In this document: positions 26,282 through 53,240 of the stretch, in pieces
Position numbering within the stretch: position 1 is the stretch's first letter
How the letters are laid out: every line of letters begins with the position of its first letter
UHGV virus genome: UHGV-1451962
Length of the DNA: 64,000 nucleotides
Direction: 5' to 3' (one strand)
From: a virus
Translations under genes and position numbers: made by a program
The notes under the pieces: generated by a model
Database searches by the model: none
Told to the model about the DNA's origin: nothing
The model's input: only the letters and a program-made list of their open reading frames with translations

Positions 26282-26941
26282 TTAATTTTTCAATTTACCG
26301 CAAGAATGCTTCTCGGTACATTTGCCGAAATATTGACATTTAGGAATAAATAAGTGATCTACCAAATATTTCCATTCTTCTGAGTAAATAGCAAGTGCTT
26401 TTTTTATATCCTGCATAACATTTTGATATTCCCAATAAGCACGTTTACACATTCTTTGATGGGACATATCAACTAAATTCCGCAAATTAGTTCTTACTAC
26501 TACTTTTGTTTCCATACCAAGAGGAAGTAAAAGACTAGCATCTTCAATTGGCATCCCCATATCAACTAATACTTTATAATTCTGAGCAATCGACTGCATA
26601 CTTTCTTCATATTTTTGTTTCATTTCTTTAGAAGTAAAAGAAGGAGAAACAAAAGAAAAAGAATCATAGTTGATATAGCGAGTTGATGCCTGTAGTCGTG
26701 TGGGGCCACCTGAAATATGAGTATAAAATTCTCTTAAAGTTTTTGCGCTATATCCTTCAAGGATCATATAAACTTGTGGAAATTCCATAACTCTTCCATG
26801 CCCAGATTCAATACATTCTTTAGCTCTTTTGATATTATTATATTTATTTGTGATTTTTGCGTTCCAACATACTCCAGCTTCAACGCCGATAAGATGAAGA
26901 GGATTCTTAGTAGTTGCAGATTGGATAATAACTTTGCCCAA
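26282..26941 (-). CDS. thyX: flavin-dependent thymidylate synthase
   Basis: 219 aa with ThyX-like SxRY segment (RLQASTRYINY) and HGRVMEF region; canonical RHR is not exact. Confidence 0.6.
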   Translation of the reverse strand: MGKVIIQSATTKNPLHLIGVEAGVCWNAKITNKYNNIKRAKECIESGHGRVMEFPQVYMILEGYSAKTLREFYTHISGGPTRLQASTRYINYDSFSFVSPSFTSKEMKQKYEESMQSIAQNYKVLVDMGMPIEDASLLLPLGMETKVVVRTNLRNLVDMSHQRMCKRAYWEYQNVMQDIKKALAIYSEEWKYLVDHLFIPKCQYFGKCTEKHSCGKLKN

Positions 26942-38078: not shown

Positions 38079-38621
38079 TTACTTAATTCTATTTTTAATA
38101 TCCTTAATAATCAAATCAATAGAAACAGGGAAATTATTATGAGCATCTAATTCTACATGATAAATAAGACCTTTATCCCAATCCGCAAAAGCGTCCTGAC
38201 TATGAGAGTGTCCGCACAAACTAATCATTCTTGCTTTAAGAGGTTTCTCATTATCAAAATTACTACAAAGTGTAGGATAATGGCTTAAATAAAAATGATA
38301 TTTACCATATCTTAAAAATTGACCTTCAGTTACTTTAATAATATTATTACAATTATTATATAAATTTACACGAACTTCACTATCATGGTTTCCTCTAACT
38401 ACATAAATTTGTCCTTTTAACTGTTTAATTTTTTCAATTCCTGCTTCATTATCATTTAGCATCAAATCACCAAGCACATAAACTTTATCATTAGGACGAA
38501 TAATTTTATTCCAATTTTCAATAATTGCGTTATCATGTTCTTGGATATTCTTAAATCCTCTTGGTTCATAAAGAAAGGGCTTATTATGGCCTAGATGAAG
38601 ATCACTGGTAAACCAAACCAT
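38079..38621 (-). CDS. calcineurin-like metallophosphoesterase
   Basis: Motifs DLHLGH, GDLMLN, GNHD, HSH; 180 aa. Confidence 0.75.
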   Translation of the reverse strand: MVWFTSDLHLGHNKPFLYEPRGFKNIQEHDNAIIENWNKIIRPNDKVYVLGDLMLNDNEAGIEKIKQLKGQIYVVRGNHDSEVRVNLYNNCNNIIKVTEGQFLRYGKYHFYLSHYPTLCSNFDNEKPLKARMISLCGHSHSQDAFADWDKGLIYHVELDAHNNFPVSIDLIIKDIKNRIK

Positions 38622-38623
38622 TA

Positions 38624-39136
38624 TTACACCTCCTCAGGATAATGCAAAATAGTATTCACATTATGAAAACCCCAATCAAAATATTTATTCATTTCATCCT
38701 TAGAAGGAATAGAAGATTTAAAATAAAAATTTTTTATTGCTTCTTCTGGGACTTTAGCGAAACCTTCTCTTTCAGAATTTCTTCTTAAAGCAACATCTAA
38801 AAGAATAGGAAAATAATCAAAAGTAAGATTAATATTATTCTTATCTTTCAGATCAAAAAAATTGTTTAAAAGTTTAGCTCTTGAAGAAATATCAATATGA
38901 GTCGCATCTATATAAATATTTTCTACATTTTCTTTAATCGCGATTTTAATATTTGCAATCATTTCTTTATATACCTGTTTTTCTTTACTAAAATAATTTT
39001 TTCCAGGATTTTCGTCTACATAATTCTTGCGGATTTCATCTCTTGAGATAATCTTACCATTCTGCTGTTTTGCCCAAGTAGATTTGCCGGAAGCAGGAAT
39101 ACCACAAAGAATATGCAAATTAATCATAAATACCAA
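38624..39136 (-). CDS. P-loop kinase, polynucleotide-kinase-like (AAA_33-type)
   Basis: Walker A CGIPASGKST at N-terminus, 170 aa; directly upstream of the metallophosphoesterase. Confidence 0.5.
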   Translation of the reverse strand: MVFMINLHILCGIPASGKSTWAKQQNGKIISRDEIRKNYVDENPGKNYFSKEKQVYKEMIANIKIAIKENVENIYIDATHIDISSRAKLLNNFFDLKDKNNINLTFDYFPILLDVALRRNSEREGFAKVPEEAIKNFYFKSSIPSKDEMNKYFDWGFHNVNTILHYPEEV

Positions 39137-39395
39137 ACTCCTTTACATAAGAAATACTATTTTGTGCTTCTTCTTTAAAAAGTCCTTCTTCAAAATCTAG
39201 TTTAAAATTATATGCTTCTTCATCATTTCTACATTCTACCATATTAACAGTTTCTTTACAATGGGGACAATACATAACTTTCTTATGCCCAACTTCTCTA
39301 AAACGTCCTCTTAATCGAGGAATTGACATTGACTTCTTTCCGCAATTCATACAATAAAAATCGTGCATTTCATATTTTCTAGGGTCTTTAGACAT
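39120..39395 (-). CDS. zinc-ribbon protein
   Basis: CMNCGKK...CPHCKE pattern; start at ATG after GAGGAG RBS. Confidence 0.45.
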   Translation of the reverse strand: MSKDPRKYEMHDFYCMNCGKKSMSIPRLRGRFREVGHKKVMYCPHCKETVNMVECRNDEEAYNFKLDFEEGLFKEEAQNSISYVKEFGIYD

Positions 39396-39567
39396 TTTTA
39401 TCAAACTCCTCAATTTGTTTTTTTACAATTTCAAAATATTCTTTAAGCTCTTTATTTTCTTTACTTTTGTTTATTCTTTTAATTTCTGTTTTTTTCCAAA
39501 ATTTATATTTTAATGTTTCTATATAATTTGTAAAAATAATATGTATATTGTTATCTTTTAAATATTT

Positions 39568-39795
39568 TTATGTATAAAGAGGTTTTAAAAAAACAACTGA
39601 ATGTTCCTGTAAATTATAAATTTCTGGATCTAAATTATAAAAAGAAACAAAATCTTTTAATTTTAAAATTATATATTTATGTGTTTTTGTAATTTTGCGG
39701 TCTGTTCTATAATTATCATATTGACATATAATATAAAATCCTATGAAAGGTAACGCTAATCCTAATATTAATTTTGCCATAATTATTTCCTCCAT
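39568..39795 (-). CDS. small membrane protein
   Basis: 75 aa with one hydrophobic helix (LILGLALPFIGFYIIC). Confidence 0.4.
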   Translation of the reverse strand: MEEIIMAKLILGLALPFIGFYIICQYDNYRTDRKITKTHKYIILKLKDFVSFYNLDPEIYNLQEHSVVFLKPLYT

Positions 39796-40508
39796 TAAAT
39801 AGAAAAGATATGTTCATCAAAAGTATTTAAATCAAAAAGAATAATTTGTTTACTCCAATGAGTATCTAAATCAAGATTAACCTTTTGATTATTATTATAC
39901 CAACAAGCTCCACCTTCATATTTAGGAGGATTGCGAAATTCTCCTATATCTTCTATCATTAGAGGAATTGGGGTATGGCCATGAACAATTAATTCATTTG
40001 GATTAATTAAACATCTAAATTTATAATGTAATCTATTCCAAAGAAAATCAAATTCATCACCAGAAATATTATTAGGAGAAAAACCTGCATGACTTAAATG
40101 AATTTTAATTCCATTTTTATTAGTGTATTGTTCATAAACTGGAAGTTTATTAATTACATTTAAATACTCAATAGCATTTTTTTCTTTAGACCAATCTAAT
40201 AAAGTAGATAAACCTCCATTGTTCATATGAAGATAAATATCATCTCCATATAAACATTTTTCATTTTTTAGAAATTCTCTTCCAGAATTTACTAACATTT
40301 GTTCATGGTTTCCTTTAAGAAGGATAAATCTATCATCTTTTAAAATTTCTTTAAGGATTTTCCAACCTTCTGTCCCTCTGTCAATTACATCACCCAACAC
40401 AAATACTTTATCTTCTGCTTGAATGAAATTTTTAATCTGCTTAAACAAATTTGAATTGCCATGAAGGTCAGTAAAACAATAAACTTTACCCTTATTCATA
40501 AACATCAA
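39795..40508 (-). CDS. metallophosphoesterase (PPP/ApaH-like phosphatase)
   Basis: Motifs DLHGN, GDVIDRG, GNHE; 237 aa. Confidence 0.7.
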   Translation of the reverse strand: MMFMNKGKVYCFTDLHGNSNLFKQIKNFIQAEDKVFVLGDVIDRGTEGWKILKEILKDDRFILLKGNHEQMLVNSGREFLKNEKCLYGDDIYLHMNNGGLSTLLDWSKEKNAIEYLNVINKLPVYEQYTNKNGIKIHLSHAGFSPNNISGDEFDFLWNRLHYKFRCLINPNELIVHGHTPIPLMIEDIGEFRNPPKYEGGACWYNNNQKVNLDLDTHWSKQIILFDLNTFDEHIFSI

Positions 40509-40524
40509 TTCCTTTCTTAATTTC

Positions 40525-40560
40525 TATATATATTATATAATATTTTTTTAAAAAAATAAA
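40525..40560 (-). promoter_or_regulatory. promoter-leader cassette (TATAAT -10 plus conserved AGAAA(G/T)TAAG..AGG leader)
   Basis: Minus-strand TATAAT at 40532-40537, about 25 nt upstream of start codon; same cassette recurs at many minus-strand gene starts. Confidence 0.4.
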
Positions 40561-40562
40561 TT

Positions 40563-40591
40563 AAGGGCAAAAGATCTTAATCTTTGCCCTT
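40563..40591 (-). terminator. rho-independent terminator
   Basis: AAGGGCAAA...TTTGCCCTT stem downstream of gene 40599-40817. Confidence 0.55.
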
Positions 40592-40598
40592 AATTCTT

Positions 40599-40817
40599 TT
40601 AATCTTCAATTTCTTCTATTTCACCATTAATAATTCTTTTACAATATTCTTCTTCACAAATATCATCTAAATTATGAATTGTATCAAAAGAATAATATAA
40701 ATTAATATAATCTTCTTTCGTTGCGTAAGGATTTGCAAACATAAAATTGTCAAAATCCTTATCTACCATAGCACGAATATATTCCATAAAATCTTTTTTA
40801 TCAATTACAATTTTCAA
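40599..40817 (-). CDS. hypothetical acidic protein
   Basis: 72-aa ORF. Confidence 0.4.
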   Translation of the reverse strand: MKIVIDKKDFMEYIRAMVDKDFDNFMFANPYATKEDYINLYYSFDTIHNLDDICEEEYCKRIINGEIEEIED

Positions 40818-40994
40818 AGAATAAAGCCTCCGAGCCGCAAGATTTCAAAAATAAACCAAAATACACAAAAAAGAAACCAGAAAATACGCATTTTCTTTTC
40901 TTGACATCTATTGTGTAAAATTGTTTCGCATAGCAAAACTCCATTAATACACATTAAAATGCCCCAAATAATCGTCATTATTAAATGAAACATA

Positions 40995-41444
40995 TTAGGT
41001 CATTACCTCCGATACAATTTGATTAACAATTTTCATATCTGCCTTACCCTTAAAAACAGGAGCAAAAAGTTTCATTGCTCTACCTTTGTTTGCCTTAGTT
41101 GCATCAAGTTCATTTTCGGCAAGCATTTTTTCAATTTGAGTTTTAATTGTTTCTTTATCGGTAAGAAGCTGTGGTGCATACTGCTTTACAACAGCCATAT
41201 CAAGATTATATTGAATAAATAACTCTTTGCGGTTTTCTGGACAAGTATCAATCATTTCTTGAATCATCTTTTGATACTTAATTAAAGTATTATTAACAAG
41301 CTCTTCGGTAATTTCAATTCTGCCTTTTGGCGTAATTGCTGCTTTTTGTACTTCACCAATCATATTGGAAAGTACATTCTTCTTTTGAGTATCACCATTC
41401 TTCAAAGCCTGCATCATATCATTGTGCATAATTTCTAAAGTCAT
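40995..41444 (-). CDS. GatB/YqeY-domain protein
   Basis: 149 aa; colinear with bacterial YqeY proteins (N-terminal MTLEIMHNDMMQALKNGD..KKNVLSNMIGEVQK, C-terminal KGKADMKIVNQIVSEVM). Confidence 0.65.
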   Translation of the reverse strand: MTLEIMHNDMMQALKNGDTQKKNVLSNMIGEVQKAAITPKGRIEITEELVNNTLIKYQKMIQEMIDTCPENRKELFIQYNLDMAVVKQYAPQLLTDKETIKTQIEKMLAENELDATKANKGRAMKLFAPVFKGKADMKIVNQIVSEVMT

Positions 41445-41446
41445 AT

Positions 41447-42724
41447 TTAAACCTCCTGTGCTTCTTCCATATCGGGCTGGGTTTCAGTATCTTTAACTAG
41501 ACCTTCAAGAACTTTAAATTCCCAGGTTTTTTGTTTTAATGCAGTAAAAGTACGTCTATTAGCGATTCTAACCACTACACCTTCTTTAACATGAGTTAAA
41601 CCAATTGGGTCAACAATATCTTCAAAATATTTGTCAATTTTAGCGAGCAAGTCATCAATAGTAGTAAACTCAAAATCCTCAATGATAGGAACACGATTAA
41701 AACCATATTCATTGCACCAAGTAGTAATTTCCTCTGGAGAATATTCATATTCACCATTATGAGAAGTAATTCTATAAATCCACATTGCAGAATGACCAGG
41801 AGTACAACCATAAGAAAAAGTAGTATATTTACCAAACTTTTTCATAAATTTCTTGTCATTGATTTTACTATTATCTACAATTGGCATAATAGTTTCATTT
41901 TCTTTTGCTCCATACCAACCAACTACTTCATAAAAAACCTCCATACCTTCATTAAGATAAGGTTTCAAAGCTTCATGGTGACTAAATCTAAATTTGTCAT
42001 TACCATAATAACCTGCTCCATCAGTGGTAACAACAGTTCTACGAGTACCTAAAACATACTGCAACTTTCTCTTAGGTTTCATGTGAAATAGCTTTCTAAA
42101 CCAAGACATAGGATATTCTGCCCAAGTATATGCACTACGTTGGCTAGTACCATGCATTTTAAGGGTTAGATTAATTTTATCTCCAGGTCTAAAGATTCCA
42201 AGATTATAAGCTAATTGGGCAGTATTAATATGCATGGCAAAATCAGGATACTTAATTCCAGCTGCTTTACGACCTTTATAAGAAGTTTTAGGAGTAGTGC
42301 GAGGAGTAGCCGAAGGTTTAGGAATATATTTATAACAAAATAGCTTATTATTAATTTCAGTGACTTGATCGCCATCTTTCCAATTTTGCTCACCAAAATG
42401 CTCAACAATAGTAGAATAAGAAATAACAATACCAGAAGATTCATTACCTCTTAGCTTAATTGCTCTAATATGAGCATTATTTTCCAAATAACCACCTTGT
42501 GCGGTACCATCTAAATTCTTGCGGAAAAGCTTAAACTCATCACCAAACCAACGCTCAATAGCTCCATCAGTAGGAAGATAAAGAACTAATTCATCTTCCT
42601 TCATATCAGGGCCTACAATAACTCCTTCTCTAAAACAATCTGCTAAATAGAGTCTATCAGAATTAGGGTCTTTTCTTACATTTTCAATTTTAGTTACTAA
42701 ACCATAGTACGCCATAAATGTCAA
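41447..42724 (-). CDS. RNA ligase-like nucleotidyltransferase (Rnl2/Rnl5-like with N-terminal extension)
   Basis: Candidate motif I KMHGTS (KxHG, as in T4 Rnl2 KIHG), downstream FYEVVGWYG and LKQK motifs; 425 aa. Confidence 0.45.
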   Translation of the reverse strand: MTFMAYYGLVTKIENVRKDPNSDRLYLADCFREGVIVGPDMKEDELVLYLPTDGAIERWFGDEFKLFRKNLDGTAQGGYLENNAHIRAIKLRGNESSGIVISYSTIVEHFGEQNWKDGDQVTEINNKLFCYKYIPKPSATPRTTPKTSYKGRKAAGIKYPDFAMHINTAQLAYNLGIFRPGDKINLTLKMHGTSQRSAYTWAEYPMSWFRKLFHMKPKRKLQYVLGTRRTVVTTDGAGYYGNDKFRFSHHEALKPYLNEGMEVFYEVVGWYGAKENETIMPIVDNSKINDKKFMKKFGKYTTFSYGCTPGHSAMWIYRITSHNGEYEYSPEEITTWCNEYGFNRVPIIEDFEFTTIDDLLAKIDKYFEDIVDPIGLTHVKEGVVVRIANRRTFTALKQKTWEFKVLEGLVKDTETQPDMEEAQEV

Positions 42725-42734
42725 ACTCCTTTAT

Positions 42735-43004
42735 TTAAATTTCATAACCTTGCACCTCCATAACTGCTAAAGATTTATAGACCATTTTACCACTTTTACT
42801 TTTAGCTTTTGTTACCATACCCATTTCAATCAAATGCCCAAGAATCCTAGCCATTTTTTGAGTGGAAACACCTGTTAATTGAATACTATTCTTTTTAATT
42901 TCATCTATTGTCATGGCTTCTGCTGATTGAGCAAGAATAACCGCAGTTTCACCTTGCCAAATTGCAGTCTGATCTTTACTATATTTGCTTTTTCTATAAG
43001 TCAT
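42735..43004 (-). CDS. hypothetical protein
   Basis: Start moved to ATG (MTYRKSK...) after GAGGAG RBS. Confidence 0.45.
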   Translation of the reverse strand: MTYRKSKYSKDQTAIWQGETAVILAQSAEAMTIDEIKKNSIQLTGVSTQKMARILGHLIEMGMVTKAKSKSGKMVYKSLAVMEVQGYEI

Positions 43005-43017
43005 AAAATTCAACTCC

Positions 43018-43848
43018 TCAATTTTTAATAAACCATTCTTTGCCAAAGTAAGTAGTATGATGAGTAATACATGAAGTTAATTTTTTTTCAATTGCAGAAA
43101 TGGTAGTTCGGTTCTTTTCTTTAACCATTAAATTATAAATTGCTTCAACAGCAGTTTTTTTATCAAAAAAATAACCACTACAATTTGTTTTTTTACAGTT
43201 AGAGTTTTTAAAATATACTACTCCTTGCGGGACATCTTTTAAAGCTGTTTTCTTTTTAATAATTTTTTTATCTTCTTCTTCAATTTCAATAAAATCCATA
43301 ATTGGAAAAAGAAAATTTCTAGCTGCGTTCCAATTAAAATCTTTTTGAGTTTCCACAGCAATATTATATAACATAATAGCATCATCTAAACTATTATGAT
43401 TCTGTAAATTATCATATTTATTTAAATAAGAATAAAATTTAGTTAGTTTAATATTGTCGATTTTTAATTTTTTACAAATTTTTCTTGAAAAATCTCTAAT
43501 AGAACCACTCATATATCCTAAAATAGAACGTGCTTTTAAAGAGTTAGTTCTTTTAAATGTATGTCGAATATATTCTACATCACAACTACCCCAAGTATAA
43601 AATTCAGGAAAATTATCCTCCAATTTATTAAAAACCCAATCATATAACTTTTCAAAAACTTCTTCGGAATTTGGAGCGTTATTTAATTTTTCTTTTGTTA
43701 AACCAGTTAATTCAATAAGAGCGTTAGTAATTTTTCCTTCTTTAGGTTTTACAAGAGAATAAAAAGTTTTTCCATCTTCTCTTACAACACCTACTGAAAT
43801 AATTTCCTCAACATATTTTGCAGCTTCAAAGTCAATATAGTATTTCAT
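43018..43848 (-). CDS. DnaQ-like 3'-5' exonuclease (DEDDh)
   Basis: Exo I YIDFEA (DxE) near N-terminus and exo III HNSLDDAIMLYN. Confidence 0.6.
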   Translation of the reverse strand: MKYYIDFEAAKYVEEIISVGVVREDGKTFYSLVKPKEGKITNALIELTGLTKEKLNNAPNSEEVFEKLYDWVFNKLEDNFPEFYTWGSCDVEYIRHTFKRTNSLKARSILGYMSGSIRDFSRKICKKLKIDNIKLTKFYSYLNKYDNLQNHNSLDDAIMLYNIAVETQKDFNWNAARNFLFPIMDFIEIEEEDKKIIKKKTALKDVPQGVVYFKNSNCKKTNCSGYFFDKKTAVEAIYNLMVKEKNRTTISAIEKKLTSCITHHTTYFGKEWFIKN

Positions 43849-43927
43849 AAAACTTCAACCTCTTTCTTATTTATTTATTCCTTAACTTTCTATATATATT
43901 ATATAATATTTTTTTAAAAAAATAAAT

Positions 43928-43957
43928 TAAGGACAAAACTTTTAAAAGTTTTGTCCT
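43928..43957 (-). terminator. rho-independent terminator
   Basis: AAGGACAAAACTTTT-AAA-AGTTTTGTCCTT stem downstream of gene 43980-44498. Confidence 0.55.
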
Positions 43958-43979
43958 TAAATTTAAAATAAATTTCTTT

Positions 43980-44498
43980 TTAACTAGAACATTCATTTAC
44001 AGAATCTTCGATAGCATTTTTATTACTTATTGCTTCAATACAGTAATCCAATGCCTTTTCAGTAAAAACACCAATTCCAATCATTGCTTTTACTTGTTCT
44101 TTACTGAGATAACGCGCAGTCATTTTCTCATTTACTTTCATTTTTTTGCTGCCATTATAGAAACAATGGTAGCCATAGTCATATCGTGTAGCATAGTCAG
44201 AGTTATTATCAAAAATCCTTTCGCCAGGAGTAAAAATAACCTTATAAAAACGATTCATTTCTTCTCCTGTAAATACTTGACGGCTGATGCTTGAGTTGTA
44301 TAAAAATGTGATAGTTTCATCAGGATTATTTCGATCGGGCATTTTGCGGGCACCCATAGCTAAAGTGCTTCCACCAGTATGACAATTACATACAATCAAC
44401 AATTCTTTATCAGCTTTGATGGCATCTTCTAAATCTTTGCTTTTGTAAAACGCGATACGTCCATTGGGGAAAATTCGTGCTTCATATTTATTAGTCAT
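43980..44498 (-). CDS. hypothetical protein
   Basis: 172-aa ORF; LIVCNCHTGGSTLAMG segment, no firm family assignment. Confidence 0.45.
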   Translation of the reverse strand: MTNKYEARIFPNGRIAFYKSKDLEDAIKADKELLIVCNCHTGGSTLAMGARKMPDRNNPDETITFLYNSSISRQVFTGEEMNRFYKVIFTPGERIFDNNSDYATRYDYGYHCFYNGSKKMKVNEKMTARYLSKEQVKAMIGIGVFTEKALDYCIEAISNKNAIEDSVNECSS

Positions 44499-44500
44499 TA

Positions 44501-44830
44501 TTATTTCTCCCTTAAAGTAATTGTATAAATTTTTCCATCTACTTTTAGTATTTCATAATCTTTATATAATTCATTAACTGAAACAGAATCATTTATAATA
44601 ACATCATAACGACAAGGAGAAGAATCATCAGATTTTAAATAAAAAGCAGCTAATAAACCAATCGTTACTCCCCATATAAGAGGTACTAAATTTCCTTCAG
44701 GTGTCATATCAAACCAAAGCATTTTAACTAAAAAGAAAAACAATATACCAGTTAAAATACTAAGAATAATAATTAAACTTGCATCCAAAGTAAAATCATA
44801 TTGTTTTAAAACTGTAACGCCATCAATCAT
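44501..44830 (-). CDS. small membrane protein
   Basis: 109 aa with two hydrophobic helices. Confidence 0.4.
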   Translation of the reverse strand: MIDGVTVLKQYDFTLDASLIIILSILTGILFFFLVKMLWFDMTPEGNLVPLIWGVTIGLLAAFYLKSDDSSPCRYDVIINDSVSVNELYKDYEILKVDGKIYTITLREK

Positions 44831-45569
44831 TAATTAAATCCTCTAAATTATAAATATTTTCAAATAACATATATCTACCATCATAGTAATCTGTATTTGC
44901 GTGAAAATGTCCCCAGAACCAATTATTCCAAGAAAACTTATCTTTTAAATCATTCATCCAAATTTCCATAGTATTGTCAATAGTAGATTGATCAATTCCA
45001 GGAAGAAATAAAGCAGTAGGACGCCAATCAAAAGGACAAGTATGAGATAGAACTAAATCATAATGATGATTAATCACTTTATTGTTAATATCTAACATCT
45101 CTTGCTGTGTTAATTGTTCATCAGGAAACCAACCAGTCCAATCATCGGTACGATTCAAAGTAGCCTGCATTAATCTATAATGTTTATCAACCGAATAAGC
45201 ACCACCAAGAACAATAGCAGAATGACCATTAAAGTAGTAAGTATTTCCGTCAATCAAATATTTAAGGTTAGGAAAATCCGGTTGAGTATAAATCCAACCT
45301 TGAATTTCTGCATCCCAAATTTCTTGAATATTAGGTAAATTTTTAGGATGCTCTTCATGGTTTCCCCGCACACAATAAATTGAATATCCTAAATCATTTA
45401 CTCTTTTCTTCCACTTTTGCTCTTTTTTATCTAACCAAAAATTAAATCCTGCATCTCCAAGAATAATAAGAGAAGAATTTTTAGGAGAGCAAGAATATTG
45501 TTCAATCATTTGACAAATACGTTGATAATTTTTACCGTGCGTATCTCCAGTAATAAAGTACTGTTTCAC
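44823..45569 (-). CDS. metallophosphoesterase
   Basis: Motifs GDTHG, GDAGFN, GNHE; 248 aa. Confidence 0.7.
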   Translation of the reverse strand: MKQYFITGDTHGKNYQRICQMIEQYSCSPKNSSLIILGDAGFNFWLDKKEQKWKKRVNDLGYSIYCVRGNHEEHPKNLPNIQEIWDAEIQGWIYTQPDFPNLKYLIDGNTYYFNGHSAIVLGGAYSVDKHYRLMQATLNRTDDWTGWFPDEQLTQQEMLDINNKVINHHYDLVLSHTCPFDWRPTALFLPGIDQSTIDNTMEIWMNDLKDKFSWNNWFWGHFHANTDYYDGRYMLFENIYNLEDLIND

Positions 45570-45581
45570 TAGAATTCCTCC

Positions 45582-46478
45582 TTAAAAAGTAGTAGGTTGA
45601 AAATATGAGCATAAATAACTTTCAATGATATTTAATAATACTTCATCCATGTAATTAGAAATTTCTACATTAATAGAATAATTTTTTCTTTCATTACTTA
45701 ATCGCTCATACTGATTCTTTACCCATTCTTGCTGATCTTCAACAAAAATTTTTACAAAACTTAAATCTTCATATCCATTTTTATAAAAGATTAATCTTTC
45801 TCTCCAAAAACTATCATAACACTTTAAACAAATAGAATAAGAATCATTCAAGTAACAACTATAAAATAATCTAAGTCTATTTAAATGGCTAAAGCACTTT
45901 GGGTCATAACCAAATTTTTCTACAACTTCTTTTCGACTCTCTGTTGGTTTAAACATGCGATTAATCTCATTTTGCATCATGCCAAGCATACTATTTAAAG
46001 CTCTAAACTCATCATAATGAGCAATTTCATCTCTTTTATAAATTAATTTATTCCAAAAAGATTGATATTTTGGATTTACATAATAGTAATCAGTGTATAA
46101 AATTTCTAAAAAATTAATATTCTGTTTGCGGAATTCATTCATATAAAGCCGCACATCTTTAAAATCAATGTGTTCATTATTATCTAAAACATGAGTATAA
46201 CTCACTGGTTTTTTATTAAAAGCCAAATCTTCAATAGTAGGAATAATAAGACATTTAGTATCAACATCCGAATTTGCTGTATCAAGACCATAATTAGCGG
46301 CACCTTGATAAAAAATACCAAGAATATTTTCTTCAGAAAAAATTTTTAAAGCTTCTTGGTAATGCTCCATTACTCTTGTTTGAATTTCAATATAAGAATG
46401 ATAATTGGTAGATTTTTCCTCTTGCTTTTGAATATAAATAGTTTTAATAATATTATATAAATTTTGATAATTATTCAT
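45582..46478 (-). CDS. Pol-beta-superfamily nucleotidyltransferase
   Basis: Minimal NTase signature GAANYGLDTANSDVDT (G[SA]x9-13 DxD); 298 aa. Confidence 0.5.
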   Translation of the reverse strand: MNNYQNLYNIIKTIYIQKQEEKSTNYHSYIEIQTRVMEHYQEALKIFSEENILGIFYQGAANYGLDTANSDVDTKCLIIPTIEDLAFNKKPVSYTHVLDNNEHIDFKDVRLYMNEFRKQNINFLEILYTDYYYVNPKYQSFWNKLIYKRDEIAHYDEFRALNSMLGMMQNEINRMFKPTESRKEVVEKFGYDPKCFSHLNRLRLFYSCYLNDSYSICLKCYDSFWRERLIFYKNGYEDLSFVKIFVEDQQEWVKNQYERLSNERKNYSINVEISNYMDEVLLNIIESYLCSYFQPTTF

Positions 46479-46479
46479 A

Positions 46480-46824
46480 TTAAATCTCCTCCCAATGATT
46501 ATGCTGAATAATTCTTCTCATATTTTGAACTCCCACAGGATTTTGGGAATGAAGATGAAATTTACAAGAAAGAGGCCAAGCAAAAGCATTTTGAACTCTC
46601 TCTAACCAATTTAAAATTTCAATATAATCGCCACCATCAGAAGCAAAATCTCCAGCATCATAGTCGAGAGATATTAAATCAAGAAAAATATCATCAGTTA
46701 ATCCAATTAAAAAACCATTTTGAGCAAAAGAAATCATAGTTTTCGCTTGTTCGACAGATTTAGCCCAAATATAACCAGTAGGCGCAGGTCGAATATCATC
46801 CACCCATAATTTCATAAACATCAA
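46480..46824 (-). CDS. hypothetical protein
   Basis: 114-aa ORF, 2-nt gap to upstream gene. Confidence 0.4.
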   Translation of the reverse strand: MMFMKLWVDDIRPAPTGYIWAKSVEQAKTMISFAQNGFLIGLTDDIFLDLISLDYDAGDFASDGGDYIEILNWLERVQNAFAWPLSCKFHLHSQNPVGVQNMRRIIQHNHWEEI

Positions 46825-46901: not shown

Positions 46902-47963
46902 TTATTTTATAATATTTTTAAAACGCTCTAACATAACTGCCATTTGCTCTCTAGTTAAATAAGCTTTGGGTAAAAGATAGCCTTTATCATCACCTTGAAG
47001 AATACCTGTACTAACAGCCCATTCAACACTTGCTTTAGCCCAATTAGAAATATCATTTTTATCTTTAAATTTATCTAATGTATTCATATTTGTCCTCCCA
47101 ATATTATAATATTTATCAATATCAATAGAATTTGGTTCAGGTAAAATTACCGCACCAAATCCTGTTTTTGGATCAATTCCCTTATCGCCTATATCTTTAC
47201 AATTATCTTTGAAGAATTGAATCATTCCTTCTCTTGTTAGAGGTAATCCTTTTTTATCAATAAAGAAATCATCTACCAGACAGCTCATTCCACATAACCA
47301 AGGTGTAGAAAAAGAAGTGCCAGAATTGGAATAAGTTGCTGCGTCTGGTTTTGTAGCTTGCGGATTTAAATAAATCATACTAGGCGCAGAAAAGTCTACA
47401 TAATTACTAATACTAGAATAATAAGCAGGATTTACTGTACCATCTACCATTAAAGTATAAGCAGCTACGCCGATTACTTCTTCAATTTCCATAATTGGAT
47501 TATATTTTTTAGAAGAATCATTTCCTGCGCTCCAAAAGGGTTTAAAATTAGGATGTTTAATATACCAATTTTTTAAATCTTCAAAAAATTTGGTATGTCT
47601 ACTACAATTTAAAGAGGTAAACATATTGGTAATATTATATTTTTCAATAATTTCTACTGATTCATTAAAAAATTTAGAGTTATAATTATCTCCACCGCCA
47701 TAACTGCCATCAATGGAATAAAGCATAAATAAATGAGCTTTTGGAGCTACTTGGAAAAATGTTGCCGCGGTATTTATTGGATGTTCATTTGACATTTGTT
47801 TATCTTTTAAACAATTTCTTACTAAATTATCTGGATTATATCTATTAATATCCCAGGTTTCTCCACTTGCAGCATTTACTCTTTCTCCAAAATAGCCCGC
47901 ATTATGGAAACGAGTTACACCTGTAAAGTTTCTATGTCTATTATCATCATTTAATAATATCAT
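46902..47963 (-). CDS. subtilisin-like (S8) serine peptidase-like protein with C-terminal SLH-like domain
   Basis: SAGNDS and SNSGTSFSTPWLCGM resemble subtilisin Asn and Ser motifs; C-terminal NWAKASVEWAVSTGILQGDDKGYLLPKAYLTREQMAVML resembles SLH. Confidence 0.45.
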   Translation of the reverse strand: MILLNDDNRHRNFTGVTRFHNAGYFGERVNAASGETWDINRYNPDNLVRNCLKDKQMSNEHPINTAATFFQVAPKAHLFMLYSIDGSYGGGDNYNSKFFNESVEIIEKYNITNMFTSLNCSRHTKFFEDLKNWYIKHPNFKPFWSAGNDSSKKYNPIMEIEEVIGVAAYTLMVDGTVNPAYYSSISNYVDFSAPSMIYLNPQATKPDAATYSNSGTSFSTPWLCGMSCLVDDFFIDKKGLPLTREGMIQFFKDNCKDIGDKGIDPKTGFGAVILPEPNSIDIDKYYNIGRTNMNTLDKFKDKNDISNWAKASVEWAVSTGILQGDDKGYLLPKAYLTREQMAVMLERFKNIIK

Positions 47964-48019: not shown

Positions 48020-49543
48020 TTACTTAATTACTTCATATCTTTTGCTATTCAGCTTTTCCAATACCAAGTCAAGACCAGTCTTGCCAGTCATTAACATTTC
48101 ATAAGTTACCGCAGAGTAACCAGAAATAAAAGTAATACCATCTTTCATCTTCATGGGAATATTATCATTTCGAGCATCAACATTCCAAAAAATCAAGTGC
48201 GGAGTAGTGTAACCATGAGAGTTCCAAACCTGCATAATCTTTTCCATTTCAGACTTGTATTCATCCCTATTATAGTAGCCAGTGCAATAATCAAATTCCA
48301 TATCACTAATGATTACAATGTTTTTAGGCATTTCTTCATTAGGAATATTATATTTAATAGCATTACTTAATAGCAAATCAAAAATACTTTGAATATTAGT
48401 GTTCTCACAGAGATTCTTTTGATAAATTCGACGTACTTTATCAACAAAATCAATACCTTCAATAGGCACCAATCTTGCAGTCCGAGAAAAAGTAATATAA
48501 TGTCCATACCAGGGAGAATTGGGATTACACTTCTCAGCACAATACATACCAAGAGAAATAGCTACATCAATAGGCGCGATAGTTTTCTCACTACCATAAA
48601 AACCACACATAGAACTAGAAGTATCAACGACAGCAACACCGTCAAAAACAGCATTATTAAAATAATCCTTTAGATTATCCCAATACTTATTGAGTGCAGC
48701 TCTCTCCACATCAGTTCCATTAAAATTTCCTCTATAATAAGGAAATTTAGAAACAACAGCATAAACTACATCCGCGGGATTCAAAGTATCAGCATTGACC
48801 TTAGTATTAGAATCCTTTACAAACTCTTCATAAGTTACCTTATTAGACTTTTCTCTTTCAATATCGTGCTTTGCAAAAGCATTGCGATACTTTAGACCTG
48901 CCTTAGAAGGAATCTTATCAAATTCAATTTCATCCCAACGGTTTTCACTCATCAGTCTTTCCAAAACTCTAATTCTTTCACGAAGAATAGAGAGAGTTTT
49001 GCGATACTGCTTAGGAGACATATTAAAAGCCATTCTAGTTTTAGTTCCAAGCATACGAGATTCCACAGAAGAAGTGTTCTCAGACTTCAACCACTTAGCC
49101 AAAAGAGAGGGAGTTTTACATTGAACATCAAGAGCAAGTTGATGATACATAGTCTTAAAAGCATCTGCCTCAAGTGGAGTATCAACAAAAGCATACAAAT
49201 CATCCCAGCGACCGTACTCAGGAACATACTTCAGATTTCTGCGCATTTCCTCAGTATGGTTAATGGCCAACCAAGAAGTTACAACCTTAAAAAATCTGCG
49301 TTCTCCCTGTCCACCGCGTACGTCTCGCAAATAAAAGAGACACTTCAAAGCATAAGAAATATCTTCTTCAAAAGCCTTCTTAAAAAGAAAAATACAATCA
49401 TCATCTGAGCGATTTCGATAAGCGCCACCAAGAGCAAACAAATCCATAATTCCATTCATAGTAGAATTATAAGTCAAACCACCATTCTCAGTGATAGAAT
49501 GAGTATTCTTTTCCTTCAAAATATTAAGCATCTTATTTTCCAT
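48020..49543 (-). CDS. TROVE/DUF2828-like protein with C-terminal vWA (MIDAS DxSxS) domain; Ro60-like architecture
   Basis: 507 aa; N-terminal TENGGLTYNSTMNGIMDLFALGG; VAVVDTSSSM MIDAS-like motif around residue 305; AAAAGGAGAAAG RBS; family call is from recalled patterns only. Confidence 0.4.
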   Translation of the reverse strand: MENKMLNILKEKNTHSITENGGLTYNSTMNGIMDLFALGGAYRNRSDDDCIFLFKKAFEEDISYALKCLFYLRDVRGGQGERRFFKVVTSWLAINHTEEMRRNLKYVPEYGRWDDLYAFVDTPLEADAFKTMYHQLALDVQCKTPSLLAKWLKSENTSSVESRMLGTKTRMAFNMSPKQYRKTLSILRERIRVLERLMSENRWDEIEFDKIPSKAGLKYRNAFAKHDIEREKSNKVTYEEFVKDSNTKVNADTLNPADVVYAVVSKFPYYRGNFNGTDVERAALNKYWDNLKDYFNNAVFDGVAVVDTSSSMCGFYGSEKTIAPIDVAISLGMYCAEKCNPNSPWYGHYITFSRTARLVPIEGIDFVDKVRRIYQKNLCENTNIQSIFDLLLSNAIKYNIPNEEMPKNIVIISDMEFDYCTGYYNRDEYKSEMEKIMQVWNSHGYTTPHLIFWNVDARNDNIPMKMKDGITFISGYSAVTYEMLMTGKTGLDLVLEKLNSKRYEVIK

Positions 49544-49598
49544 AATAACTTTCTCCTTTTGTTTTTTAGTTTTCTCTCTTAGGCAAGAGAGATATTAA

Positions 49599-49682
49599 TG
49601 GTACCAGAAGCGGGACTCGAACCCGCACGCATAAAGCGAAAGTTTTTGAGACTTCTTTGTCTACCAATTCCAACATTCTGGC
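49599..49682 (-). tRNA. tRNA-Leu (anticodon CAA)
   Basis: Cloverleaf by eye: acceptor GCCAGAA/TTCTGGT, anticodon loop CTCAAAA, long variable arm, T-loop TTCGAGT, encoded CCA. Confidence 0.8.
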
Positions 49683-50059
49683 AAATAAGGTTTTCCCTTG
49701 TAAGGAGGATAACCTAAAACCCAAGCTAGCTTTAGTCCTTTTTTAATCAGAGGTTGACCATTCTCATTAGCATTTCTCAGAAGCCTTGATTTTCTACTTC
49801 TCGTAGTAGAAGGAGTGGAGATGAGTAATGCTCCGCCGTCTCTCCTATATAACACCTTGCATTTTAATGACGCAAAGAAACATTTTACTATGCGGCTATC
49901 AACCTGTTTACCCATAGCTAACGACTTAGGTCGCCCTTATGTCTGGTCACGCAGTATCGTCGCTTCAACAGTTGCCAGACTAATTCTCCCGATACCCGGA
50001 TACCCAGTTCAGCATTATCTGGGGTACTCATTTATTTTACGTCTGTATGATAAGACTAA
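49683..50059 (-). ncRNA. candidate structured non-coding RNA (unassigned 377-nt GC-elevated spacer in tRNA island)
   Basis: No tRNA fold found; GC clearly above flanks; only low-plausibility ORFs that overlap tRNAs; next to TROVE/vWA gene. Confidence 0.25.
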
Positions 50060-50135
50060 TGGTGGCTCGCCTGGGATTTGAACCCAGCACATCTTGCTTA
50101 AAAGGCAAGTGTTCTACCTAATGAACTAGCGAACC
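50060..50135 (-). tRNA. tRNA-Lys (anticodon TTT)
   Basis: Acceptor GGTTCGC/GCGAGCC, anticodon loop CTTTTAA, T-arm CTGGG-TTCAAAT-CCCAG, encoded CCA. Confidence 0.85.
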
Positions 50136-50213: not shown

Positions 50214-50273
50214 AAATACAAGATACTTTTTTTTGATTAAAAGTCAAAAAATAAATTGCTATGAGTATCTTTA

Positions 50274-50497: not shown

Positions 50498-50682
50498 ATA
50501 TTAAGGAAGGTGGAGGTAGGGCCTCACCTATAGCTGCTCCTCAATTATTCCCCTACTTTTCTGACTCTACACCCGCAGGCACGATACGTATTATACATCC
50601 GTTCAAAGTTTATTGTCATGTCAGCAAGACAAGATGCCTTTCACATCAGCTATTTCCTTTTGTTATCTATTATAATTCTGCT

Positions 50683-50910: not shown

Positions 50911-51023
50911 ATGAATATTTAAGCAAGACTCATTTTTCTTCTTGATTACCAGTCAAGTGCTTTTAAGCTTTATTTGCTGTATAAGTCTTTTCTTAAATAT
51001 TATATCATATTTTTTTTAAATTT

Positions 51024-51218
51024 TCAATTTTTTCTTTTCAGTCCAAAATACTGATCTGCACGAGGAGAACCCAAATGAAATACATCCTGAGTACCAATAA
51101 GAACCAAAATATTGGCAGTATAAGGATTAATGGAATTTTTACGGATAAAATTAAGGGCCTGCTGTCTAGTTCTAAAAGTCATAGTCCAATTCTTAGCTTT
51201 AAAAATAATCTTATTCAT
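51024..51218 (-). CDS. hypothetical small protein
   Basis: 64-aa ORF with GAAAGGAGAAAATTT RBS and sigma-A-type promoter at 51248-51276. Confidence 0.4.
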   Translation of the reverse strand: MNKIIFKAKNWTMTFRTRQQALNFIRKNSINPYTANILVLIGTQDVFHLGSPRADQYFGLKRKN

Positions 51219-51247
51219 AAATTTTCTCCTTTCTTAACTTTCTATAT

Positions 51248-51276
51248 ATTATATCATTTATTTTTTAAATTTTCAA
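51248..51276 (-). promoter_or_regulatory. sigma-A-type promoter (-35 TTGAAA, 17-nt spacer, -10 TATAAT)
   Basis: Minus strand: TTGAAA (51276-51271), 17-nt spacer, TATAAT (51253-51248); about 30 nt upstream of ATG 51218; second tandem copy at about 51305-51360. Confidence 0.5.
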
Positions 51277-51361
51277 ATTAATTTATTTTGTTCAAGAAAT
51301 TTTTATTACTCTTTCCTTAACTTTCTATATATATTATAATATATTTTTATTAAATTTTCAA

Positions 51362-52009
51362 TTATTGTCCACTTGTACAAGAAGGAGGATCGGCACACGA
51401 AGTGCTTGAATTTCTTTGACAACCAGAATTACATCTTCCACAATTACCTCTATTACATTTTTCACAACCTCTATCGCAGCTTTCACAAGTATCACAAGTA
51501 ACATCACAATTTGCATTACATTTATTACATTGATCTTTTTTATATTTTAATGTATTTGCCGCAGTCTCTAAACCAGAAAAATAAGAACCTAAAAGATCAT
51601 CTCCTGGAGAAACATTAGATGCAGTACCACTATGGCCGCCTAAACCATTTAATGCTCTACTAACTGCATTAAAATCTCTTGCTCTCATAGAAGATTGAGT
51701 AATTCCACCACTACTGATACCAGGACTTCCACCATTTTTTTTAGTACCTTTAGCATAAGCATTACAAATAAATTTATAAATACTATTCCATGTACTTAAT
51801 GTAAAAAATTGTTGTCCTCTTGCAGTACAAGCTCCCCAACTAAAACTACCTACCCTTTGATGGCTATCTTCACAAAAAGATTGACAATCATTACAGCCGG
51901 AGCATTTATCACCTTTCATACAACCAGAATCACATTTTTCACAAGAATCACATGATTCGCAACTATTGCAAGATTGACATCCTGAATTACATTTTTCACA
52001 ACCCAATAG
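51362..52009 (-). CDS. Cys-rich repeat protein, putative substrate of adjacent radical-SAM/SPASM enzyme
   Basis: About 214 aa from TTG after AAGGTGGTG SD; N-terminal 45 and C-terminal 55 residues are C-x2-C/C-x3-C repeats with Cys followed by D/E/N/Q in most positions; start overlaps rSAM stop by 14 nt. Confidence 0.65.
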   Translation of the reverse strand, partial: LLGCEKCNSGCQSCNSCESCDSCEKCDSGCMKGDKCSGCNDCQSFCEDSHQRVGSFSWGACTARGQQFFTLSTWNSIYKFICNAYAKGTKKNGGSPGISSGGITQSSMRARDFNAVSRALNGLGGHSGTASNVSPGDDLLGSYFSGLETAANTLKYKKDQCNKCNANCDVTCDTCESCDRGCEKCNRGNCGRCNSGCQRNSSTSCADPPSCTSGQ

Positions 52010-53240
52010 ATTCACCACCTTCTAATTTATAATCTAAATATTCTTTAAAAAATTGATTTTTCTCTTGCTCGACAAGAATTTTCATCATTAAAATTCCACC
52101 TTCAAGAAGAATTTGATTGTAAATACAATCAATAGAAGGTCTAATAAAAAAGTCATTAAACATATCACGCGAAACAGAAGGACAAACTTTATGAATACAA
52201 GCTTGTCGTAGCTTACAATTACTACATAATTCTTTTTTAGAACTAATTATAGTTATTGCTTCATTATAATCAGTCAGCATTTTCTTATGTTTTTCTATAT
52301 TGATACCATTAAAAATATCACCAATATAAAAATAATCATTTTCATCTCTTGAATCTTGCTCTTGACAACCATAAATTTTACCATCATAAGCAATAGAAAT
52401 AGAACCAGTTCCTAAACCACATCTGCGAACTCCGCGAGAAGGGGATAGATCAGAAAAATTTTTAGTATAAGTTTGAAGGTCTATATCAATAATATCATCA
52501 AAAGCACTATCTAAATTAGAATAAAGAATGGGAATTTTTCCTTCAATGTAATTCATAGTCGTATAAGTAATAATTTTTCCAATTTCTTCTCTTAAAATTT
52601 TAATATTTTCTTCTGACCATTCTTCTCTAGCATTTGGACACATAAAAATTTGTCTAAAACCACACTTTTCTGCGAACAAAAATGATTCAAACATTTTATC
52701 TATTGTTGGCTGGTAAAGAGTGGAGCGAAAAGTAGTATTAGGAAAATATTTAAGAATAATAGGAATATTCTTTTCAACTAAATCAAAACTACTTAAATTT
52801 GTATCTCGACAAGGTCGATTATAATCCTGTACTTCTTTTATTCCATCAATAGAAAGAAGAAGTTTAATATTATTATCATAACAAAATTTAACTCTTTCTT
52901 CATTTAGAAGAGTTCCATTTGTCGTCATATCAAAATGAAAAGTATCAGGATATTTCTCTTTAGTATATTTAACAATAGGAACAATAATCTGTTCCCATAA
53001 AAGAGTCGGCTCACCGCCAAAAAATGTTACTTCATTCTTTTGATTTTCTCTTCCAGTAAGCTCTTTGTATTTTACTAAATTTTTGGCTAAAAAATCTATC
53101 GCATTTTTAGCCATTTCTACATCCATATAATGCGGCTTTTGATGTACAAAGCAATATCTACATTGTAGATTACAATTATCTGTTAAATTTAAACACGCAT
53201 TAATAGGATACTTAAAAGTTTCATCATAATTATAACTCAT
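51996..53240 (-). CDS. radical SAM enzyme with C-terminal SPASM-like Cys cluster (peptide/protein maturase-like)
   Basis: CNLQCRYC (CX3CX2C) at residues 16-23, FFGGEPTL motif, C-terminal CSNCKLRQACIHKVCPS...IDC auxiliary-cluster cysteines; AGGAGGGAG RBS. Confidence 0.8.
   Translation of the reverse strand: MSYNYDETFKYPINACLNLTDNCNLQCRYCFVHQKPHYMDVEMAKNAIDFLAKNLVKYKELTGRENQKNEVTFFGGEPTLLWEQIIVPIVKYTKEKYPDTFHFDMTTNGTLLNEERVKFCYDNNIKLLLSIDGIKEVQDYNRPCRDTNLSSFDLVEKNIPIILKYFPNTTFRSTLYQPTIDKMFESFLFAEKCGFRQIFMCPNAREEWSEENIKILREEIGKIITYTTMNYIEGKIPILYSNLDSAFDDIIDIDLQTYTKNFSDLSPSRGVRRCGLGTGSISIAYDGKIYGCQEQDSRDENDYFYIGDIFNGINIEKHKKMLTDYNEAITIISSKKELCSNCKLRQACIHKVCPSVSRDMFNDFFIRPSIDCIYNQILLEGGILMMKILVEQEKNQFFKEYLDYKLEGGESIGL

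Follow-up and report, generated by a model that had tools for sequence, protein, structure and literature searches.

A Ro60-like protein gene and a family of YrlA-like RNAs in phage tRNA arrays associated with RNA repair

Phage RNA-repair systems that combine a Rot/TROVE scaffold with RlaP and cRec were reportedly described by Burroughs and Aravind in 2016. Ro60 proteins with YrlA RNAs are known in bacteria and in 22 phages (PMC4201824), the known YrlA RNAs using a GNCGAA(N)G motif near the 5′-end (PMC4201824), and the Ro60 of the Thermus phage phiLo binds two RNAs, Yrl1 and Yrl2, encoded upstream of the phiLo gene (PMC12135203). A ROT/TROVE protein is also listed as an occasional scaffold in the syntax of phage RNA repair (PMC7824862), and TROVE has been reported from a minor fraction of jumbo phages (Iyer et al. 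2021, PMC7824862). In short, neither a phage Ro60 with Y RNAs nor a TROVE protein at an RNA-repair locus is new. Here we describe a locus of the virus genome UHGV-1451962, analysed as one stretch of 64,000 nucleotides (nt; the window) belonging to an IMG/VR contig of 137.7 kb, in which a gene for a divergent Ro60-like protein of the DUF2828/DUF7788 family adjoins an array of transfer RNA (tRNA) genes. The protein's RNA partner is probably a family of YrlA-like RNAs, designated Y-like RNAs, encoded in such arrays. The literature searched contained no statement of DUF2828 as a repair scaffold and no description of its RNA, the papers on DUF2828 being confined to plants and tardigrades. Within that literature, the link of DUF2828/DUF7788 to a Y-like RNA family of its own, the hairpins that resemble parts of these RNAs and two candidate structured RNA modules are new.

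As in bacterial Rsr-YrlA/YrlB (Salmonella rsr-yrlBA-rtcBA; PMC4201824, PMC7790460), there is a ring-plus-vWA protein, an RNA with paired ends and a module of T-arm, closed acceptor stem and D-arm encoded on the strand of the protein gene and, in a number of strains and related loci, near it, and a position next to RNA ligase and end-healing genes. Unlike Rsr, this protein belongs to DUF2828/DUF7788 and is invisible to the TROVE profile, and unlike YrlA, this RNA scores 30 bits against a 69-bit cut-off and has ACAGCAA in place of GNCGAA. An ATP-dependent ligase with a kinase, a phosphatase and a probable RlaP stands where the rsr operon has RtcB and RtcA, and this locus, unlike that operon, lies within phage tRNA arrays and is accompanied by several frame-only hairpins; the frame is the terminal stem plus the ACAGCAA motif of a Y-like RNA, and frame-only hairpins are without the tRNA-like insert. 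The phiLo Ro60 (PDB 9KOP, 9L5Y) differs in being annotated as TROVE, with 16-17% identity over the structural alignment, and its Yrl RNAs were selected on the basis of a CGAA bulge, with no description of them as tRNA mimics inside tRNA arrays (PMC12135203). The syntax of ligase, nucleotidyltransferase, kinase/phosphatase, scaffold and tRNA provisioning is the same as in the phage Rot/TROVE-RlaP-cRec repair systems.

The DUF2828 protein between a tRNA array and RNA-repair genes

The product of the open reading frame (ORF) in question carries the motifs TENGGLTYNSTMNGIMDLFALGG and VVDTSSSM. Both had been picked out in an earlier interpretation made from the letters of the DNA (the sequence-only reading), as had the position of the ORF against a tRNA island, and all three are confirmed, with tRNA-Leu(CAA) (49599-49682, minus strand) located 55 nt upstream. 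Pfam recognizes DUF7788 at residues 302-488 (E 2e-38) and DUF2828 (E 5e-30), and PHROGs assigns the protein to phrog_850, labelled 'RNA-binding protein' (E 8e-113). In an hmmscan of the protein and 32 homologs, these two Pfam families were the only ones detected besides VWA_2, weakly matched in 18 of the 33 sequences. The DUF2828/DUF7788 family is very large, with at least 7,999 scored matches; the closest relatives of this member, from the same phage species, are 98% identical and the next 71%.

The AlphaFold2 model built from the 33 sequences (predicted local distance difference test score, pLDDT, 75; predicted template-modelling score, pTM, 0.67) has 300 all-helical N-terminal residues followed by an alpha/beta C-terminal domain, which is the Ro60 order of a helical-repeat ring and then a vWA domain. 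A Foldseek search of the PDB with this model returned 12 matches at E<=5e-4, every one a Ro60 or TROVE protein aligned at full length over ~500 columns, including those of phage phiLo, Deinococcus (Rsr), Xenopus and human, with the best match outside this set at E 0.045. The residues of the MIDAS (metal-ion-dependent adhesion site; DxSxS...T...D), namely D307, S309, S311, T382 and D414, are invariant or at least 90% conserved in the 33 sequences. We accept, from the predicted structure, that the ORF encodes a divergent Ro60-type protein that is Ro60-like at the level of the fold and outside the TROVE sequence family. The sequence-only reading, which had assigned its N-terminal region to the TROVE/DUF2828 class and seen the Ro60 domain order, was right as to the fold order and the MIDAS, supported by Foldseek and by conservation; the match to TROVE profiles that it put forward as a check is absent at E<=10.

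ARAGORN and Rfam identify seven tRNAs in the first island and ten in a second (58135-60251), all on the minus strand. A promoter-like site (50999-51027) lies upstream of island 1, which is probably co-transcribed with the Ro60-like gene. The downstream block consists of genes likely to function in RNA repair (Table 1). Its kinase and phosphoesterase profile matches are clear, the RNA_ligase match (27.4 bits against a cut-off of 27) is marginally above threshold and the RlaP match (21 bits against a cut-off of 23) below it. For 71 related DUF2828 loci the upstream sequence extends over at least 3 kb. In 62 of them there are tRNAs no further than 6 kb upstream of the gene, 386 in total, every one on the strand of the gene. 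Homologs of the repair genes follow downstream on the same strand: 32 loci have RlaP, 22 cREC, 22 Metallophos, 9 RNA ligase and 8 the kinase, counts that are bounded by the lengths of the flanks. In these large gut phages the gene lies, in conserved order, where an upstream tRNA array meets a downstream block for RNA end healing and sealing. The phage genomes in INPHARED include no close relative, the matches being tRNA-sized only.

A YrlA-like RNA family linked to the DUF2828 gene

The YrlA-like RNA of the window, designated ya, is encoded in the second tRNA island. Its ends pair in a 7-bp terminal stem (UAGACAG/CUGUCUA), and it has the conserved motif ACAGCAA, a T-arm, an acceptor stem capped by a loop of 4 nt and a D-arm. 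The order of parts in YrlA, a T-arm, a loop-closed acceptor stem and a D-arm between paired ends, is thereby present. The Rfam YrlA model (RF02553) aligns end to end to 59542-59657 on the minus strand with 30.2 bits (E 7e-5, in a search of 281 nt). All ten strain variants fetched for the second island, through another small protein encoded in the window, have ya. A further ten strain variants of this phage, from human-gut assemblies, were retrieved by exact match to a 64-residue protein of the window, and 6 of these 10 have a 157-nt insert with the copy designated yb (for example, L085:5547-5696) between tRNA-Leu(CAA) and the Ro60-like gene. Read by eye, yb has a T-arm, an acceptor stem closed by an ACCA-containing loop, a UA dinucleotide and a D-arm, with flanks that can pair, the layout of YrlA. 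The window itself is without this insert, the gene-adjacent copy of its sister strains having been lost. With respect to the distance of ~4 kb on the same strand used as a criterion for YrlA, ya is on the same strand and 10 kb away, and yb is nearby in the six strains. The proposal in the sequence-only reading of a phage Ro60 with a Y RNA is partly supported, in that a YrlA-like RNA exists, but not in its placement, as neither ya nor yb is in the gap that had been flagged.

A covariance model built from ya alone (R2) has matches at E<1e-3 in 13 other, more distant loci, all in tRNA islands and on the strand of the DUF2828 gene. The second-iteration model (R3) also recognizes yb and, in a related clade, finds a yb-type copy that ends about 53 nt before the start codon; the scores of ya itself, 153 bits with R2 and 119 bits with R3, are high by construction because ya sits in the seed alignments. 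In an alignment of 20 Y-like sequences, 96.4% of the cells pair, compared with 67.8% in shuffles and about 40% in slid controls. Compensatory changes are found in 18 of the 22 pairs, the observed value being reached by 0 of 500 shuffles, and there are 125 double-change cells where 38 are expected. RNAalifold gives the same 22 pairs. The conserved sequences are AGAC..AUACAGCAA at the 5′-end and GUCU(A/U)G at the 3′-end. Standard annotation misses the family because it falls below the Rfam threshold.

In some Y-like RNAs (L035:3792-3923, L016:2223-2355 and L012:2073-2205) the D-arm is followed by an additional hairpin resembling a complete anticodon arm, for example AUCGU-CUGUUAA-ACGAU with the anticodon GUU; inside the frame, such copies amount to almost full tRNAs in circularly permuted form.

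A scan of IMG/VR by RNA pattern only (frame, then GGTTCRA, then frame) identified at least 120 stretches, where our own rough estimate of chance gives about 30. In the 120 loci fetched (mean stretch 8.7 kb), tRNAs are present in 110 and a DUF2828 homolog, 24-69% identical to the query, in 44. The RNA and the gene are co-oriented in 46 of 46 pairs. The RNA is upstream of the gene in 34 of these, 13 of which end within 300 nt of the start codon, and 12 are downstream, no more than ~1.5 kb after the gene except for one at ~7 kb, in association with the most divergent proteins (24-36% identity). For 20 of the 46 RNAs the distance to the gene, on its upstream side, is at most 2 kb; another 11 start on the downstream side, no more than 4 kb from the gene start. 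Shared orientation is weak evidence in phages; the recurrence of an RNA immediately beside the gene, for proteins this divergent, does not have that weakness. The data establish a covarying, YrlA-like RNA family that is linked to the DUF2828 gene.

Copies of the frame that are without a tRNA-like insert, or that surround a different one, occur elsewhere in the window (Table 1). When one mismatch is allowed, a loose frame motif has 18 matches in the window, with 6.8 expected and 0 of 100 shuffles reaching 18, and the six exact matches are all on the minus strand. One frame, AGACUC...GAGUCU, encloses an odd tRNA (58844-58919, minus strand) that ARAGORN reports as 'tRNA-???' with anticodon tgaa and that Rfam scores as tRNA at 48 bits. 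Similar tRNAs with four-base anticodons, 'taaa' or 'tgtt', occur in related loci. The odd tRNA could be frameshift-suppressor-like or another Y-like variant.

Alternatively, though we think it rather unlikely, the Y-like elements and frame hairpins could be by-products of tRNA arrays, junction debris or spacer hairpins that guide RNases, with the DUF2828 protein acting on other substrates. The presence of tRNAs in 110 of the 120 motif loci, the frame-only hairpins in ordinary inter-tRNA spacers and the loss of the gene-adjacent copy from 4 of 10 strains are consistent with this, and Chen et al. warned that tandem tRNAs can mimic YrlA (PMC4201824). The loop of the acceptor stem is, however, just 4 to about 11 nt, which means that the elements are not tRNA pairs; the four helices all show covariation among distant phages, which is unexpected for debris. 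An RNA whose end lies 39-53 nt ahead of the start codon is seen repeatedly, in clades with 35-69% protein identity, and the most divergent clade (24-36%) has the RNA just after the gene.

Structured RNA candidates in the gaps of the first tRNA island

The space between tRNA-Lys(UUU) (50060-50135, minus strand) and tRNA-Leu(CAA), designated gap A, is exactly 377 nt (49683-50059) and was the stretch proposed in the sequence-only reading as the Y-RNA-like component of a ribonucleoprotein (RNP). As noted there, it has no tRNA fold, an elevated GC content and only implausible ORFs. The GC content is 41.4%, and that of the 185-nt gap between tRNA-Arg and tRNA-Ser 40.5%, against a window mean of 30.2% and values of 13-32% in the other island 1 spacers tested and 21-31% in island 2 gaps. 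The sole ORFs, of 84 and 88 codons, both overlap tRNAs and have zero PHROG or tblastn matches. Indels of 1-2 nt in strain variants break their frames, the 84-codon ORF being destroyed, and gap A is thus non-coding. Folding of the two gaps is no more stable than that of dinucleotide shuffles (z about -0.4), so that an expected feature is absent, and no sliding window of 80 or 120 nt on either strand falls below z -2.

Rfam has no family in gap A, either at the gathering threshold over the whole window or at E<=10 over 421 nt. In the region that had been flagged it returned tRNAs only, with no group I intron, transfer-messenger RNA (tmRNA), 6S, RNase P, ROOL or GOLLD; Y RNA/YrlA, group I intron, RNase P and 6S, put forward for scanning in the sequence-only reading, were not found in 49683-50059 or 50498-50682 at E<=10. 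Each of the ten strain variants keeps gap A, in every case flanked by tRNA-Lys and tRNA-Leu(CAA) and with 96-100% identity, while homing-endonuclease genes come and go around it. Within the species it is 97.9% identical compared with 94.8% for the neighbouring coding sequence, a conservation that is unusable as evidence of selection because short spacers are equally conserved.

No homolog of the 377 nt was found by blastn and nhmmer in the first 79 related loci, and a covariance model of the whole gap (R1) found nothing convincing. Among loci fetched later, a hidden Markov model of the gap matched three other IMG/VR contigs over the first ~190 nt only, which defines module A1 (nhmmer E 1e-51 to L112 and L163). 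A1 is flanked by tRNAs in all three, two of which carry a DUF2828 gene in the DNA fetched, and in L112 it takes up all of the space from tRNA-Tyr to tRNA-Met, about 6.6 kb upstream of the DUF2828 gene. RNAalifold, with 11 sequences, predicts 42 pairs, four of them compensatory (39-55, 128-137, 144-171 and 146-169); 99.4% of the cells pair, compared with 25-45% in slid controls, and the covariation score was reached by 0 of 500 shuffles. Support is moderate because there are few independent events and essentially two clades, and to that extent A1 appears to be an independent structured RNA module conserved across phages.

The remainder of the gap, module A2, has no homologs outside this phage species in any of the other loci examined. 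Its sole supported structure is a hairpin at 49855-49877 with one compensatory and three compatible changes. A long-range A2 pair (207-364) that RNAalifold gives as compensatory has a base-pair probability near 0 in each single sequence and was rejected as unreliable. The 377-nt stretch is not the YrlA-type partner of the protein but a non-coding insert that would be cut out of the tRNA precursor. The suggestion that it contains a structured non-coding RNA is moderately supported by the covariation in A1 and the lack of a conserved small protein, and not by folding stability, of which there is no excess.

The 185-nt gap is occupied by module B, which has nhmmer homologs (E 1e-25 to 1e-29) in L212, L163 and L103 and a 29-base core pattern present in 12 IMG/VR contigs. 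Module B begins right after the CCA end of a tRNA, and in several phages another tRNA follows. RNAalifold predicts 37-44 pairs, 4-5 of them compensatory, which make up several hairpins and two helices, one closing and one long-range; at two fixed positions there are hairpin inserts that vary in length. The window copy includes a sigma-70-like pair of hexamers (including TATAAT) that is not conserved. From these alignments, B is a candidate second structured RNA module. Like ROOL, GOLLD, phage tmRNA and the T4 stable RNAs, A1 and B are predicted structured RNAs wedged between tRNAs, and ROOL and tmRNA occupy equivalent slots in related phages; unlike ROOL, GOLLD and tmRNA, A1 and B are shorter (about 170-180 nt), match no Rfam model and are found in 4 and 12 IMG/VR contigs, respectively. 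ROOL RNA (299 bits) and phage tmRNA are present within tRNA islands upstream of DUF2828 genes in related phages (L017:1-516 and 2946-3256; also L037, L055, L057 and L080).

It seems unlikely that gaps A and B encode no functional RNA and are instead features of the DNA or of mobile elements (remnants of homing endonucleases, recombination modules or promoters, for example). The tRNA islands are hot spots for homing-endonuclease insertion (PDDEXK_5/NUMOD1 and GIY-YIG in strain variants), gap B holds the promoter-like hexamers, A1 and B change tRNA neighbours among phages, and within the species gap A is no better conserved than short spacers. But several helices of A1 and B have compensatory substitutions, the hairpin inserts of module B vary in length at fixed positions while its TATAAT is not conserved, there is zero ORF or protein similarity in the gaps, and A1 and B abut tRNA ends precisely, as expected for release by RNase P and RNase Z.

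Possible functions and other features of the locus

Taken together, we consider it reasonably probable that this is a Ro60-type protein with a YrlA-like RNA partner from the same tRNA arrays, that the pair is tied to RNA repair and that the 377-nt gap is not the partner. In the Y-like RNA the 7-bp stem that joins the ends, AGAC..AUACAGCAA/GUCU(A/U)G, would take the place of the anticodon arm, and the rest would copy the tRNA elbow, with T-arm, loop-closed acceptor stem and D-arm. By analogy with Rsr-YrlA-PNPase, the rsr-yrlBA-rtcBA operon and phiLo Ro60-Yrl-PNPase, the DUF2828 ring might bind the terminal frame stem, and the tRNA-like module might then recruit tRNA-handling enzymes or a host exonuclease. 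Such an RNP could sort tRNAs of phage and host that host anticodon nucleases have cut, directing them to repair or degradation, with the adjacent kinase, phosphatase, RlaP and ligase presumably providing the repair arm. A1 and B would leave the same precursor through cleavage by RNase P and RNase Z. Fold, synteny and covarying RNA give DUF2828/DUF7788, common in large gut phages, a testable function, and would extend Ro60 biology into the conflict between phage and host over tRNA.

A more speculative possibility, which we hold doubtful, is that the frame stem AGAC..ACAGCAA/GUCUAG is a putative binding site of the DUF2828 ring that offers many loading points along a polycistronic tRNA precursor, and that A1 and B are two new classes of structured RNA. 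Many loading points are suggested because the frame recurs between tRNAs with or without the tRNA-like insert. If so, the protein would couple processing, surveillance and repair of the phage tRNA supply, a Ro60 mode not seen before, and A1 and B might have catalytic, ligand-binding or decoy functions of their own.

Several observations weigh against a Ro60-type protein with a YrlA-like partner. The hmmscan with the protein and its 32 homologs gave no match to the TROVE profile (Pfam PF05731) at E<=10, a sequence search of the PDB with the protein gave zero matches, the confidence of the model is moderate (pLDDT 75) and its template-modelling scores (TM-scores) to Ro60 are just 0.3-0.5. For the RNA, ya has 30 bits against the YrlA gathering score of 69 and is missed at that threshold, and it is without the GNCGAA motif of known YrlA RNAs, having AGAC..AUACAGCAA there instead. 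In this window ya is 10 kb from the gene, and the adjacent copy, yb, is dispensable, being missing from 4 of 10 strains. The frame-only hairpins scattered between tRNAs suit a generic processing signal as well as a protein-binding site, and part of the linkage of RNA to gene could be indirect because tRNA islands house both of them and long runs of phage genes share one orientation.

The lack of a TROVE sequence signal and the modest TM-scores would also fit a vWA/MIDAS adaptor, a chaperone cofactor or structural protein, whose helical N-domain is unrelated to RNA and whose likeness to Ro60 is convergent, and vWA proteins do pair with MoxR chaperones in some phages (PMC7824862). This is improbable, as the sole full-length structural matches, by two methods, are Ro60 proteins, the synteny with tRNAs and RNA-repair enzymes is conserved, the PHROG label is RNA-binding protein and Pfam scans of the ORFs neighbouring the gene detected no MoxR ATPase. 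That the 377-nt stretch is itself the Y-RNA-like partner is very improbable: it is adjacent to the gene on the same strand, GC-elevated, non-coding and kept in ten of ten strains, with first bases (UUAGUCUUAUCAUACAG) loosely like the frame motif UUAGACACAUACAGCAA, but it has no Rfam match, including YrlA and Y_RNA, at E<=10 on 421 nt, is missed by R3 without filters and shows neither T-arm nor D-arm nor a closed acceptor stem, A1 is found on just three other IMG/VR contigs, in L112 ~6.6 kb upstream between unrelated tRNAs, and A2 is missing from every other locus.

Table 1. Positions of the protein gene, RNA elements and repair genes within the 64,000-nt window
Feature	Position	Strand	Basis or remark
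Ro60-like protein gene (DUF2828 + DUF7788; predicted HEAT-repeat ring + vWA domain)	48020..49543	-	507 aa
tRNA island 1: Leu-UAA, Arg, Ser, Gly, Thr, Lys, Leu-CAA	49599..50910	-	ARAGORN, Rfam
YrlA-like tRNA-mimic RNA 'ya'	59540..59658	-	directly 3′ of tRNA-Leu(UAG), second tRNA island
Frame-only hairpin (AAGACUUAUACAGCAA ... GAGUCUUG), promoter-like site to first tRNA	50920..50990	-	R3 30.2 bits, motif search
Frame-only hairpin, Gly-Thr spacer	50215..50272	-	R3 26.5 bits, filters off
Frame-only hairpin, tRNA-Glu/tRNA-Met	59026..59094	-	R3 44.9 bits
Frame stem around longer insert	58388-58554		
Frame stem around odd tRNA with 8-nt anticodon loop	58828..58946	-	R3 39.8 bits
Module A1, conserved structured RNA candidate	49882..50059	-	5′ 178 nt of gap A, directly after tRNA-Lys CCA
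Module A2, non-coding	49683..49881	-	3′ 199 nt of gap A, ends at tRNA-Leu(CAA)
Module B, conserved structured RNA candidate, tRNA-Arg/tRNA-Ser gap	50498..50682	-	nhmmer, RNAalifold
cREC receiver domain protein (cyclic-phosphate processing)	46480..46824	-	Pfam E 5e-19
RlaP-family nucleotidyltransferase	45582..46478	-	Pfam E 3e-4, sub-threshold
Rest of RNA-repair block	38079..45569	-	seven ORFs, profile matches + synteny
Metallophos	44823-45569	-	
RNase T-like exonuclease	43018-43848	-	
RNA ligase	41447-42724	-	
YqeY	40995-41444	-	
Metallophos	39795-40508	-	
P-loop kinase, AAA_33, weak Pnkp similarity	38624-39136	-	
Metallophos_2	38079-38621	-	

Between the Ro60-like gene and cREC there is a gene for a subtilase (S8) with an SLH domain (46902-47963, minus strand) that is confined to this species and has no counterpart in 79 other IMG/VR DUF2828 loci. 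The SLH domain points to a host with an S-layer, probably a Firmicute. Directly upstream of the first tRNA island, a radical-SAM enzyme gene (51996-53240) overlaps the gene for a 218-residue Cys-rich repeat protein with CxxC/CxxxC runs, annotated in strain variants as tSAM_targ_Cxxx_rpt (PF27846). Together (51362-53240, minus strand) they look like the maturase/substrate pair of a ribosomally synthesized and post-translationally modified peptide, and there are two allelic versions among the strains. A promoter-like box of ~45 nt (TTGAAAAATTAAAAATTTTATGATATAATATTTATAG) is repeated at about 20-25 sites in the window on the minus strand (for example, 50989-51030, 51233-51279, 59497-59534, 60473-60503 and 26254-26296); it precedes many genes as well as the two tRNA islands and probably represents a promoter consensus of the phage itself.

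In both tRNA islands, homing-endonuclease genes (PDDEXK_5/NUMOD1 and GIY-YIG) and a 127-codon ORF have insertion points that differ among strains, as exemplified by L084:5074-5703, by L088, L089 and L090 at ~5124-5558 and, in the second island, by L094-L099 and L102. One tRNA (Arg or Thr) is missing from the islands of some strains. A suppressor-type tRNA(CUA) is present just upstream of the DUF2828 gene in many related phages (L002-L010, L064-L077 and others) and hints at TAG recoding. Related phages also have an 87-nt class-II-like 'tRNA-Cys(GCA)' with a long variable arm, beside the DUF2828 gene or its yb-type RNA, and an unusually short, 77-nt tRNA-Leu(CAA).

GC-elevated gaps in the tRNA islands of AT-rich phages appear, from the gaps described here, to be a productive place to look for new RNAs. 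ORF-poor stretches at 60252-60512 and 57899-58134, both on the minus strand, border the second island and hold GC-richer segments (for example, GGUUCAUAGGUGAGGUUCACGGAUGGGUCACAAGGCUACGGC) and a strong terminator-like hairpin at 58055-58089.

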